Shown: positions 16,172 through 31,023 of the stretch, in pieces
How the letters are laid out: each line of letters opens with the position of its first letter
Position numbering within the stretch: the stretch's first letter is position 1
Origin: a virus
Lineage: Duplodnaviria > Caudoviricetes
Reading direction: 5' to 3' (one strand)
IMG/VR virus record: IMGVR_UViG_3300023283_000360
Location: 1-31,497 of that record
DNA: 31,497 bases
Translations under genes and position numbers: made by a program
Notes under the pieces: generated by a model
Seen by the model: the letters and a program-made list of their open reading frames with translations, nothing else
The model's database searches: none
Told to the model about the DNA's origin: nothing

Positions 16172-16249
16172 GTGCTGTGACGCCGCACCCGTGCGTGTTC
16201 ATCGTCAGCCTGTGACGTCGGCTGGAGTCGGCCGCGATACGCACGCGGC
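16172..16249 (-). promoter_or_regulatory. Three tandem hairpins in the capsid 5' leader
   Basis: Stems 16231-16249, 16206-16224, 16172-16188 with sense loops UGCGUAU, GACGUCACA, GGCGUCACA. Confidence 0.55.
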
Positions 16250-16807
16250 GGGCGAGTCGTGGGTCGAACCTACCCGATCTTCAACTGGGACTGCTACTGC
16301 GGCGCGCATATAAGCGAGGATGCGTTCGACTTCACCCACCGTGGCATTGCTTTTTAGCTTGTTTGCGCGCCAGGAGATCACCCGGGTATTTCCCGGCGTG
16401 TACCCCTTCGATGGATCGATTCGATCGAGGCTCGGCGATGTCGGGCCGTTGCCTTTGCCACCGCCGTGAGCAGTACCCAGTGGTATTCCGAGAACAGGGC
16501 ACCGATCGGGGATACGAATATCGCCGGGTCCTATGGTGCATGCAATGCCGAGACGTCGGGCTCGCGAACGAGCGGCGTAAATCAGGCTAGCCTCGGGGTT
16601 ATTCGCCTCCCACACCCGTGATCCTAGCGAGTGTTTCTTCCGATTCTCCGGGTCGGCGCGCCACTCCCGGAACTTATCCGCTAGACAGGTAACGCAGGCC
16701 GAGTTCGAGGTGTACCGCTCCGCGGTATGCCCGTTTTTACAAGGACGCCCCGTGAAATAGCGCTTCAGTTCGCGGGCCCGTGCTTCGGGCTTACTTACAA
16801 TTTCCAT
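16205..16807 (-). CDS. Free-standing HNH (His-Me finger) homing endonuclease
   Basis: YFTGRPCKNGH..RYTSNSACVTC N-terminal module; CPVLG..PSLDRIDPSKGYTPGNTRVISWRANKLK; lower GC than neighbours; ATG at 16807. Confidence 0.9.
   Translation of the reverse strand: MEIVSKPEARARELKRYFTGRPCKNGHTAERYTSNSACVTCLADKFREWRADPENRKKHSLGSRVWEANNPEASLIYAARSRARRLGIACTIGPGDIRIPDRCPVLGIPLGTAHGGGKGNGPTSPSLDRIDPSKGYTPGNTRVISWRANKLKSNATVGEVERILAYMRAAVAVPVEDRVGSTHDSPAACVSRPTPADVTG
16267..16297 (-). promoter_or_regulatory. Putative late promoter for capsid gene
   Basis: GTAGCAGTCCCA-N13-TAGGTT. Confidence 0.7.
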
Positions 16808-16813
16808 ACTGTA

Positions 16814-16844
16814 CAATTAGCAAGGACCGCCCTGGGACTGCTAC
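16814..16844 (-). promoter_or_regulatory. Putative late promoter for HNH gene (leaderless)
   Basis: GTAGCAGTCCCA-N13-TAATTG-N6-ATG, directly after a terminator. Confidence 0.6.
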
Positions 16845-20219: not shown

Positions 20220-20250
20220 ACCGTAGCGGAAGCGCGCTTGGGACTGCTAC
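20220..20250 (-). promoter_or_regulatory. Putative late promoter for portal gene
   Basis: GTAGCAGTCCCA-N13-TACGGT; box contains the TerL stop codon. Confidence 0.7.
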
Positions 20251-23200
20251 GCCGTGCGCCAGCTCTTGCCGCGTCGTCCGCTGCCGCCGAGGCGATCGCG
20301 CCAGGACTTCTTGCGCTCGCCCCGCGGGCGGGTCGGCACGATCATGTCCTCGAGCAGCGACCCTAACCAGGCGAAGGCGTCGCAGTTGTGGGTGAGGACG
20401 CCATTGGCGAAGTAGACGTGGGCGTCTTCCACCGTCAGGTTATAAACCGGGTGCTTGCCGGGCAGCCGTTCTACGCTTTGCACGCTTTCGACGCCCGTAG
20501 GCCCTACCGCACCCGGCGCCTCCCCACAATGTATTGCTCCCGAGCAAGTAAGCGCATCCATCCTAACGAAGCCCTGGTTAGGACTGCTTATCGGGTGGTT
20601 CGCCGTCGCATCCAGGGACCGCCCGGCGGCGGTTCGCAGACGCAATAGCTCGCTGCAGCCGGTCTGTCCTGCGGCCAGCACCCGCTTGGGGCCGGCGGGC
20701 GTGGTCACATAGTCCCCCACCTGGATCGACTCGATCGGTCGGGGGCCCCGAGGCGTAGAGATCCGCGTACCAGCAGCAACGCACATGTCATCATGTCGCC
20801 CGGCAGGGAACTGCACGAGCTCGCGCCGGAACTCGTCGTACCACGGCGCGTCCTTCGGGATCTTGACCTTGCCCTGGCGCATGCGCGCCTGGATGGGGCG
20901 GGCCCGGGCGACCTTGTCCTTGTTGCCGTGGGCGAGGTCGATCACGTTGGCGCCGTAGACCCGACGCTCCTCGAGGCGCTTCTCGAGGAACGGCCCGATC
21001 GCCATGGACAGGTGGGATTTCTCCACACCGATGGCGTCCTGGTGGAAGCGCAGGTAGCTGTCGATCAGCCGCTCGACGATCTCATAGCCGTCGCACCGGT
21101 CGCGCTCCAGGTCGACGATCCACAGCGTGTCCGCCTCGTCCACCCCGCCGGTGATGCACACGGTGTAGTCGTTGCCATCCTTCAGACCGATGGCGAGGTC
21201 CCACGTCGAGTAGTGCACCAGCTGCTTCGGGATGTCGGCGAGGTAGCACTCCGCGGCGTCGACCATCTCGGGCGGGAACTGCGCGACCTCGCCGGCCGTG
21301 GGGTTCTGCTGGTAGAGCGCCGCCCAGGTCTGCGGGTCGCGCTTATACTTCTCGAGCAGCCGCATGGGGTAGCGCTGCGGGTGCAGGGGTTCTCCTTTCT
21401 TGCGAAGCAACGTCGCCGAAGGGGAGTACTCGGTGACGATGCGCCCGTCTGGCAACCGGTACTCGTCGTGCTCAGCCACCGCCGGGTAGCACACGACCTC
21501 CCAGTCACCGCCGTCCTCAATGCGGCCCTCCTCGTCGAGTACACGGCCGGTGAGATCGGCGAGATGCCAGCGAGTTTGTATGATCAGCGCCCCGCCGCCC
21601 GGCATGAGGCGTGTGATCGCGGAGCTGTTGTACCAGCGCCAGATGGCGTCACGCACAGTCGGTGAGTAGGCTTCGCGGTCTCTGTGGGGGTCGTCTATCG
21701 CGAGGATGTGGGCGCCGTAGCCGGCGATACCCGCACCGACGCCGACCGGCTTATAGTAGCCGCCCTGCTCGGTGCGCCAGCCCATGGCGGCCTTGTTGTC
21801 CTTGTCGAGGGCGAAGTCTGGGAACACGGTCCTGAATGACGGCTCCTTGGTGTAGTTGAGCACATCGCGGGAGTTGTCCATCGCAAGGCGGTCGGAGTGC
21901 GTCGCGCTGATTACCGAGCACGTCGGATTGCGCCCGAGGAACCACGCCACCAGAGCCTTGGAGGCGAGCTCCGAGTTGTGGGTCGGGATGAGCTGGCGGC
22001 CGGCGAGATACAGTCCGTCGGGCGAGTCAACCGTGATGCACCGCCCGACGGCCGGGTGCTCCGCACGTCGCACGTCCCGAATGCCGATGCGCCGCTGGCG
22101 CGCGAGGCGCGTGACGCGTTTGCGCGGAATGCGCGTCGGTATCGGTAGCGTTGGTTGGAAGCCGATGTAGTAGACTGTCCGCCGGCCCTCGATCCCGCTG
22201 GTCGAAAGCCCCGGCGGGACCTCGTCCGCGAGGTAGGGGCGAAAGCCGAGCGTCGTGCATAGATCGAGGATCCCATCACGCAGCGCTTCGGACGTCGTCA
22301 CGACGATCACGCGGGAGGTCCCCGGCTCAACATAACCATCGGTGTCGACCAGCCCGGCCAGCAGTTCGAGGCGTTGATCGACGGATCCGCGCAGGTACGG
22401 CGCGGGCACCGACTTCTCGTGGTAGACCCCGAGCTCGCGTAGCGGTGCGGCCAACGCGCCATCGCCGTAATAGCTACGATAGGTCCCGTAGTCACGGTGG
22501 ATATAGGTCTTCGTACACCGAACCTCGCGTGCGGCGAGTGCAGCTACGAGGACCTCGTAATCTTCCTTCGAATTGGTCAGCACGGGGCTGCCGCAAGTAC
22601 CGTCTCCGAGCCACGCGCCGAGAACGTAGGGATCGAGCGGGAGCTTCTGTTCCGGCATCTCCAGGGGCTGTGCAAGCGGCAGCTGGTACATGGCGCGGCC
22701 GCCGCGCTTACCCTTCGGCCCGGTCCAGAGCGAGCGGGGCTGCCCAGCCTTGATACCCCGCTTCGTCCGCTCCAGAAACCACCGGGTCTCGACGGTCATC
22801 CACCGCTTCGTCGAACGGTGATGCACGGTCCACTCATGCGCCTCGTGACACTGGATGACCTCGCCGTTGGTGAACTCGATCTCCATCGCGTCGATGCCCG
22901 GCGGGTGAACGGCCAGTACCTCGATGGGCTTGCCGGAGGGATGGAATACGTAGTCGCCGGGGCGAAGCTCCCCGTGTGAGGTCCAACCCGAGGTTGTTAG
23001 TATAGGTGTCTGATCCGCCAGCTCTTTCCCGTGACGAGGAGGAACGGTGATAATCATTCGCGGTGAGTCGCCCGCCTCGACACGACGCACGAAGCGCTCG
23101 AGCCGAGCGGCGAGGTCCATGTGGAACCACCCGGCGCGGTAGCCCTTCTTCAGCCGCTTGACGAAGGGCAGCAGGCGCCGGCGCGCGAGCTCCCGAGCGG

Positions 23201-23375
23201 CGAGCTCCTTGCGCGCCTCGGAAGACTGATCGATCGGCTCGACCTCGGCCCCACGCGCGCCGGCCACGCACTTCGGGCAGTAGTGCGCGGGGGCGTCCCT
23301 CGGCAGGTCCCCGCCGCAGCCGGTGCACACACCGGGGCGGTGGACGACGGCATCAAGCTCCTTGTCGACTCGCAT
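20247..23375 (-). CDS. terL: Terminase large subunit precursor with two inteins (1042 aa; 559 aa after splicing)
   Basis: Walker A VPPRHGK|S, Walker B ILAIDDP, IIQTRWH, ALYQQNP, nuclease WDLA..NDYT and FPAGRHDDM|CDA. Confidence 0.95.
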   Translation of the reverse strand: MRVDKELDAVVHRPGVCTGCGGDLPRDAPAHYCPKCVAGARGAEVEPIDQSSEARKELAARELARRRLLPFVKRLKKGYRAGWFHMDLAARLERFVRRVEAGDSPRMIITVPPRHGKELADQTPILTTSGWTSHGELRPGDYVFHPSGKPIEVLAVHPPGIDAMEIEFTNGEVIQCHEAHEWTVHHRSTKRWMTVETRWFLERTKRGIKAGQPRSLWTGPKGKRGGRAMYQLPLAQPLEMPEQKLPLDPYVLGAWLGDGTCGSPVLTNSKEDYEVLVAALAAREVRCTKTYIHRDYGTYRSYYGDGALAAPLRELGVYHEKSVPAPYLRGSVDQRLELLAGLVDTDGYVEPGTSRVIVVTTSEALRDGILDLCTTLGFRPYLADEVPPGLSTSGIEGRRTVYYIGFQPTLPIPTRIPRKRVTRLARQRRIGIRDVRRAEHPAVGRCITVDSPDGLYLAGRQLIPTHNSELASKALVAWFLGRNPTCSVISATHSDRLAMDNSRDVLNYTKEPSFRTVFPDFALDKDNKAAMGWRTEQGGYYKPVGVGAGIAGYGAHILAIDDPHRDREAYSPTVRDAIWRWYNSSAITRLMPGGGALIIQTRWHLADLTGRVLDEEGRIEDGGDWEVVCYPAVAEHDEYRLPDGRIVTEYSPSATLLRKKGEPLHPQRYPMRLLEKYKRDPQTWAALYQQNPTAGEVAQFPPEMVDAAECYLADIPKQLVHYSTWDLAIGLKDGNDYTVCITGGVDEADTLWIVDLERDRCDGYEIVERLIDSYLRFHQDAIGVEKSHLSMAIGPFLEKRLEERRVYGANVIDLAHGNKDKVARARPIQARMRQGKVKIPKDAPWYDEFRRELVQFPAGRHDDMCVAAGTRISTPRGPRPIESIQVGDYVTTPAGPKRVLAAGQTGCSELLRLRTAAGRSLDATANHPISSPNQGFVRMDALTCSGAIHCGEAPGAVGPTGVESVQSVERLPGKHPVYNLTVEDAHVYFANGVLTHNCDAFAWLGSLLEDMIVPTRPRGERKKSWRDRLGGSGRRGKSWRTA
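20385..20783 (-). mobile_element. Class 1 mini-intein (133 aa) in TerL nuclease active site
   Basis: CVAAGTRI start, TANHP block B, VYNLTV block F, VLTHN|C end; no endonuclease motifs. Confidence 0.93.
21975..23024 (-). mobile_element. Class 3 intein with LAGLIDADG endonuclease (350 aa) in TerL P-loop
   Basis: Begins ELADQTPILT; HEW block B, RCITV block F, IPTHN|S end; PYVLGAWLGDG and LLAGLVDTDG endonuclease blocks. Confidence 0.92.
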
Positions 23376-23404
23376 CCGTCCCTGGATGCCCCCTCTTGGT
23401 TACC

Positions 23405-23788
23405 TCACGCGGCCCGGCACTCGTGACTCCGGCTGACCGGAAGCATCTGATGCCGGCGGACGTCCCCCCAGAACACGCCGCTGGTGCGGTCGATGACGTA
23501 AGCGAGCCGGCCGTTGAAGAACACCGCCGCGGCGCTCCCTCGCGTGACGACCGTGGTGTAGGCGTCGGTGATGGATTGCCCGCCCATGCCGCCGAAACCG
23601 AGCGCGGTGTCCGACTAGGTCTGCGGGAAGTGATAGACCTGCACCTCGTCATCACGCGGGCGGCGCTCGCGTACTTCCTCCTCGCTCGAGCGCGGGCTGC
23701 GTGAGCGATAGCGCACGCCGGGCAGCGCGTGGTTGATCGCCTCGAAGTACGAAGCGCAAAGCGCTTTGATCGGATCACCCACCTGCAT
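23405..23788 (-). pseudogene. 127-codon phage hypothetical gene interrupted by in-frame TAG at 23615-23617
   Basis: AGGAGGTGA RBS + ATG 23788; MQVGDPIKAL...YHFPQT*SDTALGFGGMGGQSITDAYT continues in frame to TGA 23405. Confidence 0.75.
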
Positions 23789-24044
23789 CGATCACCTCCT
23801 CCAACCGGGTCATGGCGCGCTCGGCGGCCTCGTGCATCGCACGAAGCTCGTCGTACGCCGTACGTAGTGCGTCGTGCCTCGCGGCGAGGTCCGGCGCCCG
23901 GTCCACGTAGCCGCGGAAGACCACGGCGTCCCGCTCGGCGTCGTAGAGGGTGTCGTAGACGCGGGCATCCTCGGGATGGTCCACCCAGCCGTTCGCGCCG
24001 AGGTACTCGTGCTTCGTGCTTCGGACTACGTGCTTCGTGCTCAA
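23775..24044 (-). CDS. Hypothetical protein (89 aa)
   Basis: GAGGAG RBS, TTG start overlapping upstream TGA; contains two heptamer arrays. Confidence 0.6.
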   Translation of the reverse strand: MSTKHVVRSTKHEYLGANGWVDHPEDARVYDTLYDAERDAVVFRGYVDRAPDLAARHDALRTAYDELRAMHEAAERAMTRLEEVIDAGG

Positions 24045-24280
24045 TTGGGCGGCTCCTCGGCCGCGAGCGTGGCGAGGAGGTGGTGCTCGAGCACGCGGAG
24101 TTCCCCGATCAAATAGACGCTGCTGCAGGGCGCGACGTGCGCCTCGCACGCGTTGCCGGAGAGCTCGGCGACGTAGGCGAGCGAGAGCACCTCTCCGCGC
24201 CGGGCCAGCTCGAGGAGGCGCTCCAGGGCTTCGACCACCTCGGGCACCGGGGGGTGGCTGAAGTCGACCAACTTGACCAT
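24041..24280 (-). CDS. Hypothetical protein (79 aa)
   Basis: MVKLVDF..VVEALERLLELARRGEVLSLAYV; TGATG coupling. Confidence 0.7.
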   Translation of the reverse strand: MVKLVDFSHPPVPEVVEALERLLELARRGEVLSLAYVAELSGNACEAHVAPCSSVYLIGELRVLEHHLLATLAAEEPPN

Positions 24281-24384
24281 CAGGGGGCTCCGGGCATGGT
24301 GAACGTGGTCTGCACCTCCATGGCCCGGGCAGTCAGTACCGCGAGGGCCAGGAGGGCGAGGACGACGAACACGTCCCAGCGCAT
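24280..24384 (-). CDS. Small single-TM/secreted peptide (34 aa)
   Basis: MRWDVFVVLALLALAVLTARAMEVQTTFTMPGAP; exactly fills the gap with TGATG overlaps at both ends. Confidence 0.6.
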   Translation of the reverse strand: MRWDVFVVLALLALAVLTARAMEVQTTFTMPGAP

Positions 24385-24632
24385 CACCTGCCGGCCTCGA
24401 GACGGTGGAGGAGCTCGCGGGCGATGGCCTCCTTGGTCTCCGGCAGACGCCGCTCAAGCGCCGCCTCGACGTCCTGCGTAGCCCGGGTCAGGATCTCCGC
24501 GCCGTCGGCCATGAAGGGGGAGATGCCGGCGACGCGCAGGGCGGTGAGGAGGTGCTCGATAGCCTCGCGCTTGCGCAGCTCGTGTGTATCACGGGCACGC
24601 TCCTCGATGACCTCATCGACGAGACCGCTCAC
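24384..24632 (-). CDS. Hypothetical protein (82 aa)
   Basis: GAGGTG RBS, GTGA overlap, helical sequence MSGLVDEVIEE... Confidence 0.65.
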   Translation of the reverse strand: MSGLVDEVIEERARDTHELRKREAIEHLLTALRVAGISPFMADGAEILTRATQDVEAALERRLPETKEAIARELLHRLEAGR

Positions 24633-25261
24633 TGCGTCACCTCGTTCATCGCGCTGACCACCGCAGCGAAGAGGTAGTCTTTCGCCTTGTGCTCGTCGGG
24701 GAGGTGGTGGAAGGGCACCATACAAGGGTGGGTCCTCGCCTCAGGGTCCTTGGACTTGCCGTAGACCCAGCCCTCGGCCGCCTTGTGCTCGCGCCAGTGC
24801 TCGTGGAGAGCGCTGACGTCGGCGCCCGCCGTGTCGAGGAGATAGCGCACGCCGGCGTAGGTCGCATCGTGCTGCCACTGCGGGGCGTCGTGCCAGGGCG
24901 GGGCGGGCTCCTCACCGATCGCGGTCTGGTAGGCGCGGTTGACCTCGTGGGCGACCCGGGCGATGTCGTACAGGCTCGGGGGCTTCGGGGTAGCGGGGAC
25001 CGTGCCGTTGTGGCGCTGCTCGGCGAGCAGGAAGCCGAACAGCGGCCAGAGCTTCCCAAAAGCGTGGTTGAAGGCGACCTCGCGACCCAGCTCGGCGTCG
25101 AAGGCCGCCGGGTCCACGCAGGCGGACTCGCCGCGCACGCTGTAGCCATTAGTGAGGGTGAGGTGGCAGATGGTGACCGTCGTGTCGGGGAGCACATAGA
25201 ACTCCACCGAGTCGATCCGGTCCTTCATCTGCCGCTCGGTCACGCGCTGGGGCTCAGTCAT
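24629..25261 (-). CDS. Fusion: N4 gp49/Sf6 gp66-family domain + RyR domain (210 aa)
   Basis: TVTICHLTLTNGYSVRGESACVDPAAFDAELGREVA..KLWPLFGFLL, then IARVAHEVNRAY..HEHW..K..EGWVYG..KD..RTHPCMVPF..LP..KAKD. Confidence 0.85.
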   Translation of the reverse strand: MTEPQRVTERQMKDRIDSVEFYVLPDTTVTICHLTLTNGYSVRGESACVDPAAFDAELGREVAFNHAFGKLWPLFGFLLAEQRHNGTVPATPKPPSLYDIARVAHEVNRAYQTAIGEEPAPPWHDAPQWQHDATYAGVRYLLDTAGADVSALHEHWREHKAAEGWVYGKSKDPEARTHPCMVPFHHLPDEHKAKDYLFAAVVSAMNEVTQ

Positions 25262-25760
25262 GATCGTCGTCTCCTTGGGGGGTGGCGTGGTCGGGGAGGT
25301 TCAGGATCTCGTACTCACCCTCGATCGCGGCCATCTCCGCGAGTTGTTCGTCGTCGAGCTGGCGGATCTGGTCACGGCGGACATGGTTGACCTCGATCTT
25401 GGTCGGCTCATAGGCGCCGATGATCTTGCCGATCTCGCGCCAGGCGCTGACCATCTCGGTGGCGGTGGCCGCCATCTGCACCGCCTCCAGCATCCCGGCG
25501 AGCACGTCCTGGCGGGTGATCTGCATCTCGTGGGCGCGGACATGGATCGAGTACTCGATCGCCGCGCGCACGCGCTCGTCCCCCTCGAGCTGGGTCGAGG
25601 CGTCGACGGGGTACTCAAAGCCGGCCACGCGCGCCGCGGCCACGGGCGGCGTGCCCTGTAGCCGGGAGTCGATGTAGAGCTGCTCCTTGGGGCCGAGCAT
25701 CCCGAGCACCGTGTGCAGGCGCTTCGTCGCCGCAAGGACCGGCGTGAGGTGGTGCGTCAT
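25254..25760 (-). CDS. terS: Terminase small subunit (168 aa)
   Basis: HTH-like KEQLYID..G...AAARVAGF, ITRQDVL, MVSAWREIGKIIGAYEP; heads the late operon; ATG 25760 preferred over the 26069 extension. Confidence 0.8.
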   Translation of the reverse strand: MTHHLTPVLAATKRLHTVLGMLGPKEQLYIDSRLQGTPPVAAARVAGFEYPVDASTQLEGDERVRAAIEYSIHVRAHEMQITRQDVLAGMLEAVQMAATATEMVSAWREIGKIIGAYEPTKIEVNHVRRDQIRQLDDEQLAEMAAIEGEYEILNLPDHATPQGDDDHD

Positions 25761-25767
25761 GCCCGTG

Positions 25768-25798
25768 ATGAGACCGGAGATGGGACTGGGACTGCTAC
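25768..25798 (-). promoter_or_regulatory. Putative late promoter for terS (leaderless)
   Basis: GTAGCAGTCCCA-N13-TCTCAT-N7-ATG, no SD. Confidence 0.6.
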
Positions 25799-26067
25799 CC
25801 CCGGCGTTCCCGCCGCAGATATGATCGCGGTCTACCTCCCCCCTCCCACAGCGCGCGGCCTCGGATCGGATCGATCGCCGTGCGGCGTTTCGAACCGCCA
25901 CCCCCTTCGAACTGGGCCCCGCCGGCTTCGACCCCCCGGCCCCCCGTACGCCGCGCCGAGTGCCTCGTGCCTCGCGCTTCGATCGGCGCTCGCGGACTCG
26001 CGCGCTTGACGGGTTTTTCGTGAAGCTCGCGGGGTTGGCCTGCGAGCGTAGCAGTAGGAGATCAGCC

Positions 26068-26262
26068 ATGAGCTACAGCGTCCGCATCGGCAAGAAGTCC
26101 GCCCGCGTCTACATCCGCACGCCGAAGGGCGCCGTGCTGCGCCTGAAGCAGGAGGCGAAGGATCGCGAGGCGGCCAAGCAGCTCGCCCGCAGCGTCCGTC
26201 GTCGCCTCAGCGGCGGTGGGCGTCTCCGCAAGGACTGCTGGGACGTCGTGCGGCGCGCCTAG
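26068..26262 (+). CDS. Small basic hypothetical protein (64 aa)
   Basis: TAGGAG RBS, MSYSVRIGKKSARVYIRTPKG... Confidence 0.75.
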   Translation: MSYSVRIGKKSARVYIRTPKGAVLRLKQEAKDREAAKQLARSVRRRLSGGGRLRKDCWDVVRRA

Positions 26263-26282
26263 CGCGTCGCCCCCCTCCAACG

Positions 26283-26324
26283 CCCGTTAAGCGCTCGCAA
26301 GCTCGCGCGCTTGACGGGTTCTTT
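26283..26324 (+). terminator. Terminator-like hairpin
   Basis: cccgttaagcgc/gcgcttgacggg 12-bp stem (one G-U) followed by TTCTTT. Confidence 0.6.
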
Positions 26325-26370
26325 GTGACCTCGTTGTGGGGTCGCTCATTCCTTGTTGGGAGGATTCACC

Positions 26371-26664
26371 ATGCTGGGTAACACCGTGCTTCGTCCTGAG
26401 CACCTCGAGCGCATCACCGCCGCCCCGCAGCCCCGCGAGATCGACCACGAGGAGCTTCGTTCGGCGCCCGTCGATCCGCGGCTTCGCCACCTCGACCGTG
26501 GCACGCGCGCATACATCTCGCAGTGCTTCGACGGCGACGTTGACGAAGCGGCCTTCGTCGCCACGCAGTTCCTGAACACCCGCCGCTGCATTCCCGACTG
26601 GGCGGCACAGATCGTTGGCCTCGCTCGCCGCGGGTGGAAGTCCTTCGATCGTGAGAGGTGCTGA
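26371..26664 (+). CDS. Hypothetical protein (97 aa)
   Basis: GGAGG RBS, ATG 26371. Confidence 0.7.
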   Translation: MLGNTVLRPEHLERITAAPQPREIDHEELRSAPVDPRLRHLDRGTRAYISQCFDGDVDEAAFVATQFLNTRRCIPDWAAQIVGLARRGWKSFDRERC

Positions 26665-26667
26665 TTG

Positions 26668-26889
26668 ATGACTCACAGTCACAGCATCCGCTACTGGCGG
26701 GCGTCGCTGGCCCACTGGGGCGAACTCGATGCGATCGCTCGTGCCCAGCTGGCACAGGCGAATCGCTCGAAGCGCCCGTCCGCTCGGGACGACGCACTTC
26801 GTACGTTGAACGACGTAGGGCGATCGCGGTACGCCGCAGCCCGTGCGTTGCACCACGAACTCCGGCTCGCCGGACTCACGCGGACCTGA
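26668..26889 (+). CDS. Hypothetical protein (73 aa)
   Basis: GAGAGG RBS; contains a heptamer array. Confidence 0.55.
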   Translation: MTHSHSIRYWRASLAHWGELDAIARAQLAQANRSKRPSARDDALRTLNDVGRSRYAAARALHHELRLAGLTRT

Positions 26890-26961
26890 TCCGCGGCGCC
26901 ACGGACGGCGCACTTGTTCCACAGCATCACAAACGCTACCGACACTCTGGAGTACACCATC

Positions 26962-27702
26962 ATGCCCATGAACAACGTCGACACCTTCATCGACAAGCTT
27001 GACGCCCTCGAGGGCCAGACCCGCGGCGCCGTAATGGCCTCCGTGGCCTGGGCCTACACCGCGGGGCTCGTCAACATCACCACCGGCCTCATCGAGGACG
27101 CCAACCCCGACCCCGAGCGCGTCGAGCGCATGGAACGCCGCCAGGGCGAGCTCGCACAGGCCGTGACCTGGGCCGCCGGGCTCGCCGCCGCCGACTACCG
27201 CCCGGAAGCCCACGACGTGGTCGCGCGGTTCAGCACGCCTCAGACCGTGTCCACCCACGTCGACGATGAGCGCCTGAAGCTCGTCGCCGAGGAAATCGGC
27301 ATGGACGTCGAGACGATGCGCACCGTGCACTCCCAGGACGTCGCCCAGCGTCAGGAGCAGGCCCGGCAGCGGGCGCAGACGGTGCGCGACAACGCCGAGC
27401 GGATCCGGCGGGCCGTGGACCACGCGCTCGGCAGCGACGTGCACGCTGACTTTGAACTCAGCGGCATAGATGAGCTGCGCTTCTGGCAGAAAGCGAGCGA
27501 GAAGCTCGAGGCCCGGCGGCTGCAGCAGGCGACTTATGCCCTCACGGCACGAGTCGGCTCCCGGGCCCTGGAAGCGCTCAGCGAATGCAAGCTGCTGCGC
27601 CCGCTGGTCGAGGAGGCCAACGAGCGCATGAGGCAGGTCGAGCAGGCGTTGGAGGAGGCCCGGGCCGCCGAGGCCGCTCAGGACGCCCGCGTCATCGCCT
27701 AA
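26962..27702 (+). CDS. Hypothetical helical protein (~246 aa)
   Basis: GGAG RBS, GC3-rich codons, coiled-coil character. Confidence 0.8.
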   Translation: MPMNNVDTFIDKLDALEGQTRGAVMASVAWAYTAGLVNITTGLIEDANPDPERVERMERRQGELAQAVTWAAGLAAADYRPEAHDVVARFSTPQTVSTHVDDERLKLVAEEIGMDVETMRTVHSQDVAQRQEQARQRAQTVRDNAERIRRAVDHALGSDVHADFELSGIDELRFWQKASEKLEARRLQQATYALTARVGSRALEALSECKLLRPLVEEANERMRQVEQALEEARAAEAAQDARVIA

Positions 27703-27766
27703 ACCCACCCACCGGGGCACGTTGTACGCCGTACGACGTGCCCCGTTCTTCGTGCGAGGTGCCCCG

Positions 27767-27850
27767 TTGACCGCTCTCGGCCTACTGATCCTGGTCGTCC
27801 TCCTCATCGCCCTGCTCACCCGCCGCCGCACACCCCGCCGATGGCGGTGA
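27767..27850 (+). CDS. 27-aa single-TM peptide with basic tail
   Basis: GAGGT RBS + TTG; MTALGLLILVVLLIALLTRRRTPRRWR. Confidence 0.55.
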   Translation: MTALGLLILVVLLIALLTRRRTPRRWR

Positions 27851-27924
27851 TCAGATGGACAACACCGCCCGTGACGCCCCGGCACAAATGGCGTCGTCAC
27901 CTGTGCCGACGAAGCACAAAGCAC

Positions 27925-28112
27925 GAAGTGCTTGATTTCACTGGGGTATAGACGCGGTAACGCCGTAAATCAGTGCCTTATACGTCGTACTTCGTGCGTC
28001 GTGCGAAGTACGACGCGCTAAGTGCTTGGTACACCGGTAATTGTAATTCACGACACGGTGGTGTGTACGTCGCGCCTCGGGCTTCGAACGTCGTGCGTCG
28101 TTCAGGCACTTA
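27925..28112. promoter_or_regulatory. Cluster of four IHF-like sites in two inverted pairs
   Basis: 27925-27937, 27968-27980, 28019-28031, 28100-28112 match WATCARNNNNTTR or its complement with 0-2 mismatches. Confidence 0.5.
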
Positions 28113-28550
28113 TGGCTACTTGTTCCACGCAGGCACTAATGAGGCCATGATTTGTGACTCACAAGACCGTCAGGGTACCGTCTAAGCGAAGTCCTCAGAT
28201 ACCTCTTGACTCAGGACCTGTCGATTTCTCCTCACGATCCAGCCTTTTACACTCGCTTTTGTGCACTGCATTACATCGACTAAATTCTAGGTCGTCTGGC
28301 CCGTATAGCTTTTTTAGGCCCGATTCACTGTATTTTAGGCATTAGCTACCTACTTAGACACCTCGCTCCCACACAACCAAACCATGCCGAAAATGGACTA
28401 AACACTGACGGTTTACTACTTAAGCCTCCCGCCATACCCCCCGTACACTAGCCTAACTTCTTCTCCTGTCGGCCAATCTAAGCATGCACGCGCTTAATTA
28501 ATACCACACCCCAATTCCTACGTTTGCCCTGACATGCTTCTCGCCCGCCA
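28113..28550. other. AT-rich non-coding core; candidate origin, packaging site or genome-end junction
   Basis: Sharp GC drop, no credible ORF, palindrome ttgtgactcacaa 28152-28164, centre of heptamer polarity switch. Confidence 0.5.
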
Positions 28551-28703
28551 ACCACGACGCACGAAGTTCGAAGCACGACGTACGAAGTACAAGATCCCAC
28601 CGCCATACCGCCTAACCCGCATCCCGATCAAACCCTATACAAAAACAGCCCCACCCCAAGCCATCTTAGACTCCCCCCACGCCCCAACCCCGAGGAGGTG
28701 CCC

Positions 28704-29414
28704 GTGGACGCCGTGACCTGGCTTAAGAACTACCCCCGCCACCAGCTCCCTAAGCCCCGTGACAAACTACGCAAGGAGCTCAACGACCACCTGCGCGCCT
28801 CGGGCCAGCTCGCCCTGCGCAAGCACCGCTTCACCCGTCGCCTCAGCGAAGCTGGCCTGCACCTCCGGCCTACCCGCAACCGCCAATCCAAGCAGGAGAT
28901 GCTGGTCTACCCAGCGCTCGACGACCACCTGCACGAGTTCTTCACGCATCTCGGCGAAGTACGAGATGCGTCGCGCGACGCACTACGTGCGACATTCGAG
29001 GCGCGCTACGGCTACAGCGCACCGCCCCGAATCTTCAGCCACTACGCCAAATTCTACGGCTACATCCTCACCAACCGCGTCCCGAACGAAGGCGGCACGC
29101 CCACACGCTGCCTCAACGGCCCGTGGACGTGGGTTGCGTCGCACCACTATCTCGAGCTCCTCCGCGCACTGCGCGACACCCGCGAGTTCCTCAAGACCGA
29201 TGGCCGTGCCGACGCGCTCGCGTACCTCCGCAGCGTGCCGATCGACATCAAGCGCCAGATGCACGAGTGCATGCGCGGTGCGGATGGACACCCCGACTTC
29301 ACATTCCTGCGCTGCTTCACCGGCCTGAAACAGGCCGACATGGAGTGGCTCCATCTAATGCTCCCGCGGCTCATCGCCGAGGACGAGCGCGCCGCCACGA
29401 TCAACGTGAGGTGA
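28704..29414 (+). CDS. Hypothetical protein (236 aa), possible tandem winged-helix DNA-binding domains
   Basis: GAGGAGG RBS + GTG; two similar segments ending F..L..AG..R and F..YAKFYGY..R. Confidence 0.7.
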   Translation: MDAVTWLKNYPRHQLPKPRDKLRKELNDHLRASGQLALRKHRFTRRLSEAGLHLRPTRNRQSKQEMLVYPALDDHLHEFFTHLGEVRDASRDALRATFEARYGYSAPPRIFSHYAKFYGYILTNRVPNEGGTPTRCLNGPWTWVASHHYLELLRALRDTREFLKTDGRADALAYLRSVPIDIKRQMHECMRGADGHPDFTFLRCFTGLKQADMEWLHLMLPRLIAEDERAATINVR

Positions 29415-29419
29415 TCGCC

Positions 29420-29812
29420 ATGCCCATGACCCGCCAGCAGATCTTCGACCGTGCGGCGACGCACCTGCTCATCGAGCAGCGCAAACCCGCCATGCATCAA
29501 GGCAAATGCGCATACCACACTCCCAACGGGCTCTCGTGCGCCATCGGCTGCCTAATCCCTGACGAGGCCTACCACCCCCACATAGGAGGCGCCAAAGCCG
29601 CCAACAGCCGTGTCTTAGGGCAACTCGTCAACACCGGCGTGCTCCCGCCCTCACCGAGCGAGACCCTCGTTAGCTTCCTCCTCGCCCTCCAGTCCCTAGC
29701 ACACGATCGGGGCGCAACACTGTTCGACAACAACTTCCTCGCTCACTGCCGCGAAGACCTGCACAAAGTCGCCGCTGACTTCGGCCTCAACACGGAGTGC
29801 TTGGAACGATGA
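29420..29812 (+). CDS. Conserved phage hypothetical protein (130 aa), Cys/His motif
   Basis: GAGGTG RBS; CAY..PNGLSCAIGCLIPDEAY and LLALQ..HD pattern seen in phage early proteins. Confidence 0.8.
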   Translation: MPMTRQQIFDRAATHLLIEQRKPAMHQGKCAYHTPNGLSCAIGCLIPDEAYHPHIGGAKAANSRVLGQLVNTGVLPPSPSETLVSFLLALQSLAHDRGATLFDNNFLAHCREDLHKVAADFGLNTECLER

Positions 29813-30021
29813 GCCCAACCAAATGCGCAAGCACATCTCTACACGACGACCGTCGTCGCCGCGCTCGCGCTCTAAACTCACCGCCGGCCGCGGGAGCACC
29901 TAGCCATAATCACACCACTCCAATGGTGGTTGCTGTGGGCCACCCTCCTCACACCACCGCCGCAGATCGAGGTACGAGGCAACGTCGCCTACGTACCCCG
30001 CCACATGTAGAAACAGCACCG

Positions 30022-30240
30022 ATGACCGAAACCGGTAAAGCCATCCTCACATACGCCCTAATCTTCGTGCTTGGCACCCTAGCACCGCCAGCGCTGGTAC
30101 TCGGAACGATATGGCTCGCCGTGCACGCCCCGTGGGTGTTCGCCACGGCATTCAGCGGCGTCGTCGGTTTGTTCATCGTTCTCACGATCCCGCACGCGAG
30201 AACTTTACGTCACAGCACACGCAGGCGCGAACTCCAATGA
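30022..30240 (+). CDS. Small two-TM membrane protein (72 aa)
   Basis: Two hydrophobic segments then basic tail; ATGA coupling to next gene; start uncertain. Confidence 0.55.
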   Translation: MTETGKAILTYALIFVLGTLAPPALVLGTIWLAVHAPWVFATAFSGVVGLFIVLTIPHARTLRHSTRRRELQ

Positions 30241-30530
30241 CTCGACGCTACACCATCCGCATCTACGAGCACGAAGTACGAAGCACGACGCTCGAGGCAC
30301 AAGGCGAGACGTACGAAGACGCCTGCGCCGACGCTGAAGACCAGGCGCTGCACCTCACCAGTAACGAGTTCGAGCTCTGCGACCTCGAGCGTCGTACCGC
30401 GTACGTCGCCGGCCCGCACGCCGACCCCAACTGCTACAGCTGCCTCGGCACCGGCGCCCTCCAAGGCTTCGGCGTCAAACCCGGCATCGAGTGTCCATGC
30501 CTCGACACCCCCGACGACCCCACGGAGTAA
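30237..30530 (+). CDS. Hypothetical protein (97 aa) with C-terminal CxxCxGxG..CPC zinc finger
   Basis: CYSCLGTG...ECPC; ATG 30237. Confidence 0.7.
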   Translation: MTRRYTIRIYEHEVRSTTLEAQGETYEDACADAEDQALHLTSNEFELCDLERRTAYVAGPHADPNCYSCLGTGALQGFGVKPGIECPCLDTPDDPTE

Positions 30531-30533
30531 ACC

Positions 30534-30809
30534 ATGAACAAGCCCGCCCTCACCCTCGCCCTGTTCCTCGCCGCCACGCCAGCGCTCGCCCAGCCCGTTC
30601 CAGACGACTGCTACGACCTCGCCCGCTTCGCTCGCGACGCCGCCAAAGCACGGGACGACGGCGTCAGCATCCTCGAGCTTCGGCCCCTCGTCTCCGATAA
30701 CCCGGCCTACAGTTTCACCCTCGACACCGTCTACAACCAGTACGACGCAAGCCCTCACCGGCTCGAGAGCCACTTCTTCCTCGCCTGCAAGATCGCTCTG
30801 AGCGAGTGA
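30534..30809 (+). CDS. Small secreted/periplasmic protein (91 aa)
   Basis: GGAG RBS; signal peptide MNKPALTLALFLAATPALA|Q; two Cys. Confidence 0.75.
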   Translation: MNKPALTLALFLAATPALAQPVPDDCYDLARFARDAAKARDDGVSILELRPLVSDNPAYSFTLDTVYNQYDASPHRLESHFFLACKIALSE

Positions 30810-30911
30810 TAACAGCCGCGCCAACGCGGGGCCAGTGGCGCGACAAGTAACCCCCGCAGCCGGAGGCCGGCTTTGCCAGCATGGCCCTCCACCGCGCTGA
30901 TCCGGCCGGCT

Positions 30912-30932
30912 GGCCCACGATACGGGCCTTTT
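30912..30932 (+). terminator. Terminator-like hairpin
   Basis: ggccc-acgatac-gggcc-tttt. Confidence 0.5.
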
Positions 30933-30948
30933 CAACTGCTTAGCCTCT

Positions 30949-30979
30949 AAAGCAGTCCCACCCCCGCCTTCGATTCAAT
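30949..30979 (+). promoter_or_regulatory. Plus-strand copy of the promoter box
   Basis: AAAGCAGTCCCA-N13-TTCAAT after a terminator. Confidence 0.55.
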
Positions 30980-31023
30980 AGCTTCGCACGACGTACGACG
31001 TGCGAGGTACGAGGTCCGCCGTC

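Follow-up and report, generated by a model that had tools for sequence, protein, structure and literature searches.

The DNA analysed here (the window, 31,497 nt, which is the whole of a linear virus record and about 50% complete) encodes a 210-aa protein, P0001, that joins an N-terminal Acb4 domain to a C-terminal RyR domain and is probably a double sponge directed against CBASS and Thoeris, like the Acb4-Tad2 and Acb4-Sequestin fusions. We favour this reading, which draws on sequence, a predicted structure and analogy, because both halves match their families in Pfam and in fold, because all six residues of the RyR pocket are retained and because relatives of the Acb4-Tad2 and Acb4-Sequestin type have been tested. 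It is further suggested by the recurrence of the combination in 76 of the best 120 relatives, by the occurrence of Acb4 genes near RyR genes and by the slot that a related fusion occupies at the locus L031.

Published Acb4 and RyR modules

The family PF13876 has been described as Acb4, which forms tetramers that hold cyclic dinucleotides in four pockets, and 3'3'-cGAMP was reported to be bound by all eight tested homologs (10.1101/2024.12.30.630793). Phage RyR domains are the subject of two 2026 preprints, according to which they trap or cleave 2'/3'cADPR (10.64898/2026.06.04.730250; PMC13232231). Two points raised by the sequence-only reading of this DNA, that the gp49/gp66 family includes Acb4 and that phage RyR domains bind or process nucleotide signals, are both in print. 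The RyR Tad protein gp68 of Pectobacterium phage CB1 is reported as a dimeric gcADPR sponge with a KD of 43 nM that binds several signals, whose binding fell about 100-fold upon mutation of any of six pocket residues and whose N-terminal domain alone showed no activity (10.64898/2026.06.04.730250). RyDEP (gp78 of mycobacteriophage DyoEdafos) is described as a glycosidase converting 2'/3'cADPR to ADPR; it was the one protein that hydrolysed among nine tested RyR-domain proteins, six of the other eight binding signal and two not (PMC13232231).

Fusions of Acb4 to a second sponge have likewise been published. The Acb4-Tad2 protein of Pasteurella phage Pm86 cancels CBASS and type I Thoeris (10.1101/2025.07.12.664507), and the Acb4-Sequestin protein gp59 of Pseudomonas phage Ab09 blocks CBASS and Thoeris, with only partial inhibition of CBASS by its Acb4 half (10.64898/2026.06.04.730250). 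Acb4 can also trigger the Panoptes and PanDA systems (10.64898/2026.06.04.730250; PMC13640721). Our literature search, which covered few subscription papers, found no description of an Acb4-RyR fusion, and the RyR motifs and the two accessions searched do not occur in the table of 1,331 homologs that accompanies the Acb4 paper (10.1101/2024.12.30.630793). By Pfam, the RyDEP homolog H8 (Erwinia phage phiEa2809), contained in a 2026 supplementary table, is an Acb4-spacer-RyR protein, and the homolog H6 looks like an Acb4-RyR protein by eye. Of H6 and H8 only the RyR parts were cloned, and the accessible text of that report does not contain the terms 'Acb4', 'PF13876' or 'fused' (PMC13232231).

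P0001 combines an Acb4 domain and a RyR domain

The gene and its parts are as follows.

24629–25261, minus strand: Acb4-RyR fusion gene P0001, 210 aa (open reading frame, Pfam, structural model, codon composition)
25010–25243, minus strand: Acb4 domain (PF13876), aa 7–84, predicted cyclic-dinucleotide sponge (Pfam, Foldseek, VIA)
24974–25009, minus strand: Pro-rich linker, aa 85–96 (sequence; coil with lower pLDDT)
24635–24973, minus strand: RyR domain (PF02026, R12-like), aa 97–209, with the pocket residues H153, W156, K171, H178, K194 and D195 (Pfam, PHROG, structure matches, pocket residues)
25271–25276, minus strand: Shine-Dalgarno-like AAGGAG inside the end of the terS gene (sequence)

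P0001 is encoded by a single reading frame of 210 open codons whose ATG is preceded at 9 nt by the AAGGAG motif, and the third-position GC content is 0.92 in each half, compared with 0.92 in terS and 0.91 in the portal and capsid genes. The Pfam search that the sequence-only reading had proposed as a check matched PF13876 at aa 7–81 (E 1.1e-20, 74.3 bits) and PF02026 at aa 152–195 (E 1.6e-10, 41.5 bits), both above the curated gathering cut-offs of 27 and 27.4 bits, respectively. This bears out the claim that the frame carries a gp49/gp66-family and a RyR domain, and the quoted signatures of both families are present in the translation together with the Pro-rich linker. PHROG 5154 covers aa 97–207, and a search of NCBIfam matched no family. 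An AlphaFold2 model calculated from 51 aligned fusions has a mean pLDDT of 94 and displays two domains connected by a linker of lower confidence near aa 85–96. By sequence and predicted fold, P0001 is thus a member of the Acb4 and of the RyR family, and its modelled fold and pocket residues fit an inhibitor of two systems.

In the model, the Acb4 half consists of a helix, three antiparallel strands and two helices, the fold of the PF13876 protein SPO1 gp1.3 (Bacillus phage Acb4, 9E4W). The comparison with Acb4 likewise came out as the sequence-only reading had anticipated, Foldseek superimposing the predicted half on most 9E4W chains with an rmsd of 1.1–1.5 Å over 65–68 columns and VIA returning 9E4W at the top among 48,161 chains (Z 9.1, rmsd 2.5, 75 aligned). 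SPO1 Acb4 differs in that it stands alone and shares 18 of 83 residues with P0001, in which its K36, E49, Y57, T70 and K81 are replaced; K36 and E49 are described as the guanine pocket and the other three as backbone contacts (10.1101/2024.12.30.630793). We compared ten SPO1 ligand contacts (K36, F48, E49, V56, Y57, F62, N63, I66, T70 and K81), one of which is identical in P0001 as read from the sequence alignment. The Acb4 half is closer, at 37–40% identity, to those of Ab09 gp59 (33/86), N4 gp48, which we take to be the tested N4 Acb4, and Pm86 (36/89 aligned residues), with which it shares five, five and three of the ten contact positions, respectively. K36, E49 and Y57 are replaced in these three proteins as well. 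Because of these replacements and the single identical contact, the exact dinucleotide bound by the Acb4 half is uncertain. Of the pocket residues, whose absence would have counted against the sequence-only reading, the RyR half retains all six (see below) and the Acb4 half one of the ten SPO1 contacts. This half is otherwise ordinary for its family: it departs from the consensus at one of 16 conserved columns, and its mean identity to other fused Acb4 domains is typical (43% vs 43%).

The RyR half matches RyR structures by sequence, and its predicted four-helix fold matches the R12-type structures 6UHI, 6UHH and 3NRT (VIA Z 7.1, rmsd 4.5, 74 aligned). Like P0001, gp68 carries its RyR domain at the C-terminus (45/111 identical), and all six of its pocket residues, H129, W132, K147, H154, K170 and D171, are retained as H153, W156, K171, H178, K194 and D195; the same pocket is intact in all 120 relatives listed, the best of 467. 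The two proteins differ in their N-terminal domains, that of gp68 having no Pfam match and that of P0001 being Acb4, and in the loop between helices 1 and 2. Identity to H8 is similar to that with gp68 (46/110; 41–42% for both), and RyDEP is more distant (31/106; 29%). RyDEP also belongs to PF02026, and its H75, W78, H100 and D117 have equivalents in P0001, but it is a stand-alone hydrolase in a NARP1 operon, and an equivalent of its Gln54 is absent from P0001, where T134 is aligned to Q54 in a gapped region. The His/Asp dyad (H153/D195) is found in 124 of 124 sequences and so does not separate enzymes from sponges.

Genomic context of the fusion gene

The window's capsid (52%) and portal (39%) proteins are closest to those of KPP25-like phages of Pseudomonas, Acidovorax and Aeromonas. 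The fusion gene lies among the following genes.

25254–25760, minus strand: terminase small subunit gene, terS (PHROG 51, E 3.7e-6), overlapping the start of the fusion gene by 8 nt
23405–24632, minus strand: some six small ORFs separating the fusion gene from terL, the first overlapping the fusion stop by 4 nt
20247–23375, minus strand: terminase large subunit gene, terL, with intein and LAGLIDADG segments (Pfam, PHROG)

The terS assignment is also backed by weak matches to genes preceding terL in relatives. Since the two genes overlap by 8 nt, co-translation of the fusion with terS is plausible. In KPP25, terS (gp22) abuts terL and a stand-alone Acb4 gene lies two genes upstream; judged by this gene order, the DNA inserted between the two terminase genes is particular to the phage studied here. 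Assigning terS to KPP25 gp25 instead, which would have given a syntenic order, was rejected at an E value of 5. An Acb4 match was observed in two of the four cultured relatives, and the other two lack any. Stand-alone Acb4-family matches among cultured relatives include KPP25 gp24 (L094:4961–5320) and one in Acidovorax phage AP1 (L178).

We scanned the genes flanking the fusion at 18 of the 19 loci with a fusion that are described below (124 ORFs; L025 was omitted as a near-copy of L020). Nine of these fusions are situated within head, packaging or lysis modules and nine among replication or nucleotide genes; none lies directly behind terS and two lie directly before it. A conserved coupling to terS was thus rejected. 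The sequence-only reading had proposed that the coupling serves to produce the fusion with the late proteins. Its physical part is present here as the 8-nt overlap, but functional late co-expression is unsupported, given these loci and the failure to find a sigma-70 promoter for the terS-fusion unit within positions 23300–27000.

Five of the small ORFs between the fusion gene and terL were scanned and gave no match in Pfam or PHROG, the ORF next after the fusion had no usable protein-atlas match, and an 80-aa ORF (24041–24283, minus strand) resembles unnamed viral protein clusters only. The whole run (23405–24632), at a place where terS adjoins terL in relatives, is possibly an anti-defence insert. 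The 1042-aa terL product contains two apparent inteins, one with a LAGLIDADG domain, and an endonuclease VII-like gene (16205–16816, PHROG) precedes the capsid gene. Two 38-nt copies on the plus strand (25986–26023 and 26291–26328; 87% alike, TTGACG core) each stand before a small plus-strand gene, with two matches to the element against 0.06 expected; they are possibly early promoters divergent from terS. Many degenerate short repeats of CGTAC-, CGAAG- and CGTGC-like units occupy 23840–24040 and 26780–31020 in both orientations, partly within ORFs. No homologs of NARP1, Tad2, Sequestin or the gp68 N-terminal domain were found in the window, a contig of about half the genome.

The combination of Acb4 and RyR recurs in several architectures

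Searches retrieved 467 relatives, of which the best 120, in a ranking that favours fusions, were examined. Both domains are present in 76 of them, the query included; script labels assign 53 to an Acb4-RyR order, 7 to RyR-Acb4 and 16 to an inserted form (P0036, P0041, P0049 and 13 more), in which a whole RyR domain interrupts Acb4 within the variable loop that follows its first strand. Three of these 16 were checked by eye, and P0052 may belong there too. The three arrangements suggest that the domains were joined on three or more occasions. Few cultured phages carry the fusion: nine of 821 matching records cover 80% of the query, and Pfam confirmed Acb4-RyR fusions in Vibrio phage FGH and Erwinia phage phiEa2809. 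Some fusions (P0008, P0032, P0039, P0069, P0074, L014 and L018) possess an extra N-terminal region of 100–180 aa without Pfam match, that of P0032 being weakly like the gp68 N-terminal domain (E 2e-4); these regions are candidates for further anti-defence modules.

We also inspected viral loci, in sets that contain near-duplicates, so that the following counts are not independent. Ranked on the full protein, 80 loci comprised 19 fusions, 14 loci in which Acb4 and RyR are encoded separately and 47 with RyR only. Ranked on the RyR half, and hence blind to Acb4, 80 loci comprised 2 fusions, 14 with a separate Acb4 gene at ≤300 nt, 2 with one at 539 nt and 62 with none. Acb4 thus lies within 300 nt in 16 of 80 RyR loci, compared with none of 80 portal-gene loci (823 kb), in which neither domain occurs at all. 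Because adjacent Acb4 and RyR genes are commoner than fusions and the gap between the domains falls to 23 nt, fusion probably follows easily from gene clustering and need not be cooperative. A locus search with the single protein returned only two stand-alone Acb4 loci. Tad2-like, RyR and Acb4 genes are consecutive at L065:5600–6818, placing three sponge families in a row, and at L065, L068 and L033 the RyR gene is directly preceded by a Tad2-like gene.

At L031:1745–8300 the gene order is primase, Sak4, SSB, Acb4-RyR, two small ORFs and homologs of Bes1 (44%) and Bes2 (33% over 66 aa), so that in this N4-like anti-signalling hotspot Acb4-RyR occupies the slot of the Ab09 Acb4-Sequestin fusion. 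P0001 resembles Ab09 gp59 in pairing an N-terminal Acb4 with a module that is, in P0001 by prediction, a sponge for Thoeris signals. It differs in its second module (RyR, PF02026, instead of Sequestin, PF21825) and in its location, gp59 lying in the N4-like hotspot and P0001 behind terS in a KPP25-like phage. With respect to Pm86, RyR stands in the place of Tad2 (PF11195).

The divergent RyR half and alternative readings

Of 44 conserved columns, the RyR half of P0001 deviates from the consensus in 11, the highest number among 252 distinct domains (the next has 8). The changed columns include the helix 1–2 loop that braces the pocket, and residues retained in 247–249 of 251 relatives are replaced. 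Its mean identity to other fused RyR domains is 48%, against a median of 62%, with one of 75 lower. With an Acb4 half that is typical, this raises the question of whether the RyR half has been weakened or retuned to another ADPR-type signal, leaving mainly an anti-CBASS sponge, the more so as RyR Tad itself binds several signals. We consider this rather improbable, since all six residues whose mutation has the ~100-fold effect are intact and the model is confident across the domain. Several of the substitutions are moreover found in RyR proteins of Arthrobacter phages and Streptomyces, and the RyR half groups with these in a 262-sequence FastTree phylogeny (0.88) and a 19-sequence IQ-TREE phylogeny, though not in a 20-sequence tree that includes RyDEP; as the grouping differs between trees, a stable placement was not obtained. 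Taken together, the sequence comparison suggests a subtype whose pocket loop has changed rather than decay. Quite unlikely, in our view, is a combination of sponge and enzyme, in which cyclic dinucleotides are trapped by the Acb4 half and the divergent RyR half, like RyDEP, is an enzyme that converts 2'/3'cADPR to ADPR by hydrolysis. The catalytic dyad (H153, D195) is present, and in a smaller set nine of ten departures of P0001 fall on columns in which RyDEP departs too (hypergeometric p 0.03), including the column that RyDEP Q54 occupies. The dyad, however, is shared by all sponge-type homologs, none of the nine coinciding substitutions is the RyDEP residue, and P0001 never grouped with RyDEP in any tree. 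Furthermore, the Arthrobacter-phage RyR proteins that share the substitutions look, by eye, like H1, which did not hydrolyse, and tblastn detected no NARP1 genes (Adps, Namat) in the window, from which half of the genome is absent, or in the 80 loci.

A role in packaging or in the virion that is tied to terS, the likeness to sponges being incidental, would accord with the overlap of the two genes, with the fusion loci in head, packaging or lysis modules and with the Acb4 gene near terS in KPP25. We regard it as very improbable, because the other half of the fusion loci lies among replication or nucleotide genes, the portal-related loci carry neither domain, two of the four cultured relatives lack any match, and the RyR pocket residues and all but one of the conserved Acb4 columns are retained. 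Some modest chance attaches to the broader possibility of an Acb4 tetramer bearing RyR heads whose remodelled loop either cleaves cADPR or binds an ADPR-type signal unmatched to the RyR family. If true, P0001 would be the first anti-signal protein that combines sponge and enzyme, and a natural variant showing the switch between trapping and cutting in RyR domains.

Proposed mechanism and significance

As a double sponge, P0001 would be expected to capture the cyclic dinucleotides of CBASS in its Acb4 half and cyclic ADP-ribose signals of Thoeris in its RyR half, the ligand identity of both halves being inferred. If P0001 behaves like its tested relatives, its Acb4 halves would assemble into a tetramer whose pockets lie at the subunit interfaces. 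The RyR halves would dimerise via helix 1 and helix 4 and would each bind a single 2'/3'cADPR, the ribose being contacted by H153 and D195, the adenine by W156 and the phosphates by H178. Once the signals are trapped, the effectors of CBASS and Thoeris would remain off. Two neighbouring anti-defence genes probably gave rise to the fusion, and the two halves probably act additively rather than cooperatively. A likely cost is that the Acb4 half could set off Panoptes, PanDA or similar guard systems.

Both modules and the strategy of fusing them were known from earlier publications, so that a specialist would be modestly surprised at most; the pairing itself is not described in the papers that we found. 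Acb4-RyR would be the third pairing among double sponges against CBASS and Thoeris, after Acb4-Tad2 and Acb4-Sequestin, and the fusions of the cultured phages FGH and phiEa2809 offer ready test proteins. With its intact core pocket and changed loop, P0001 could help to explain why a single RyR-domain protein hydrolyses its ligand. The repeated origin of the combination, as tandem fusions in both orders, as a loop insertion and as adjacent genes, argues for steady joint selection by both defences.
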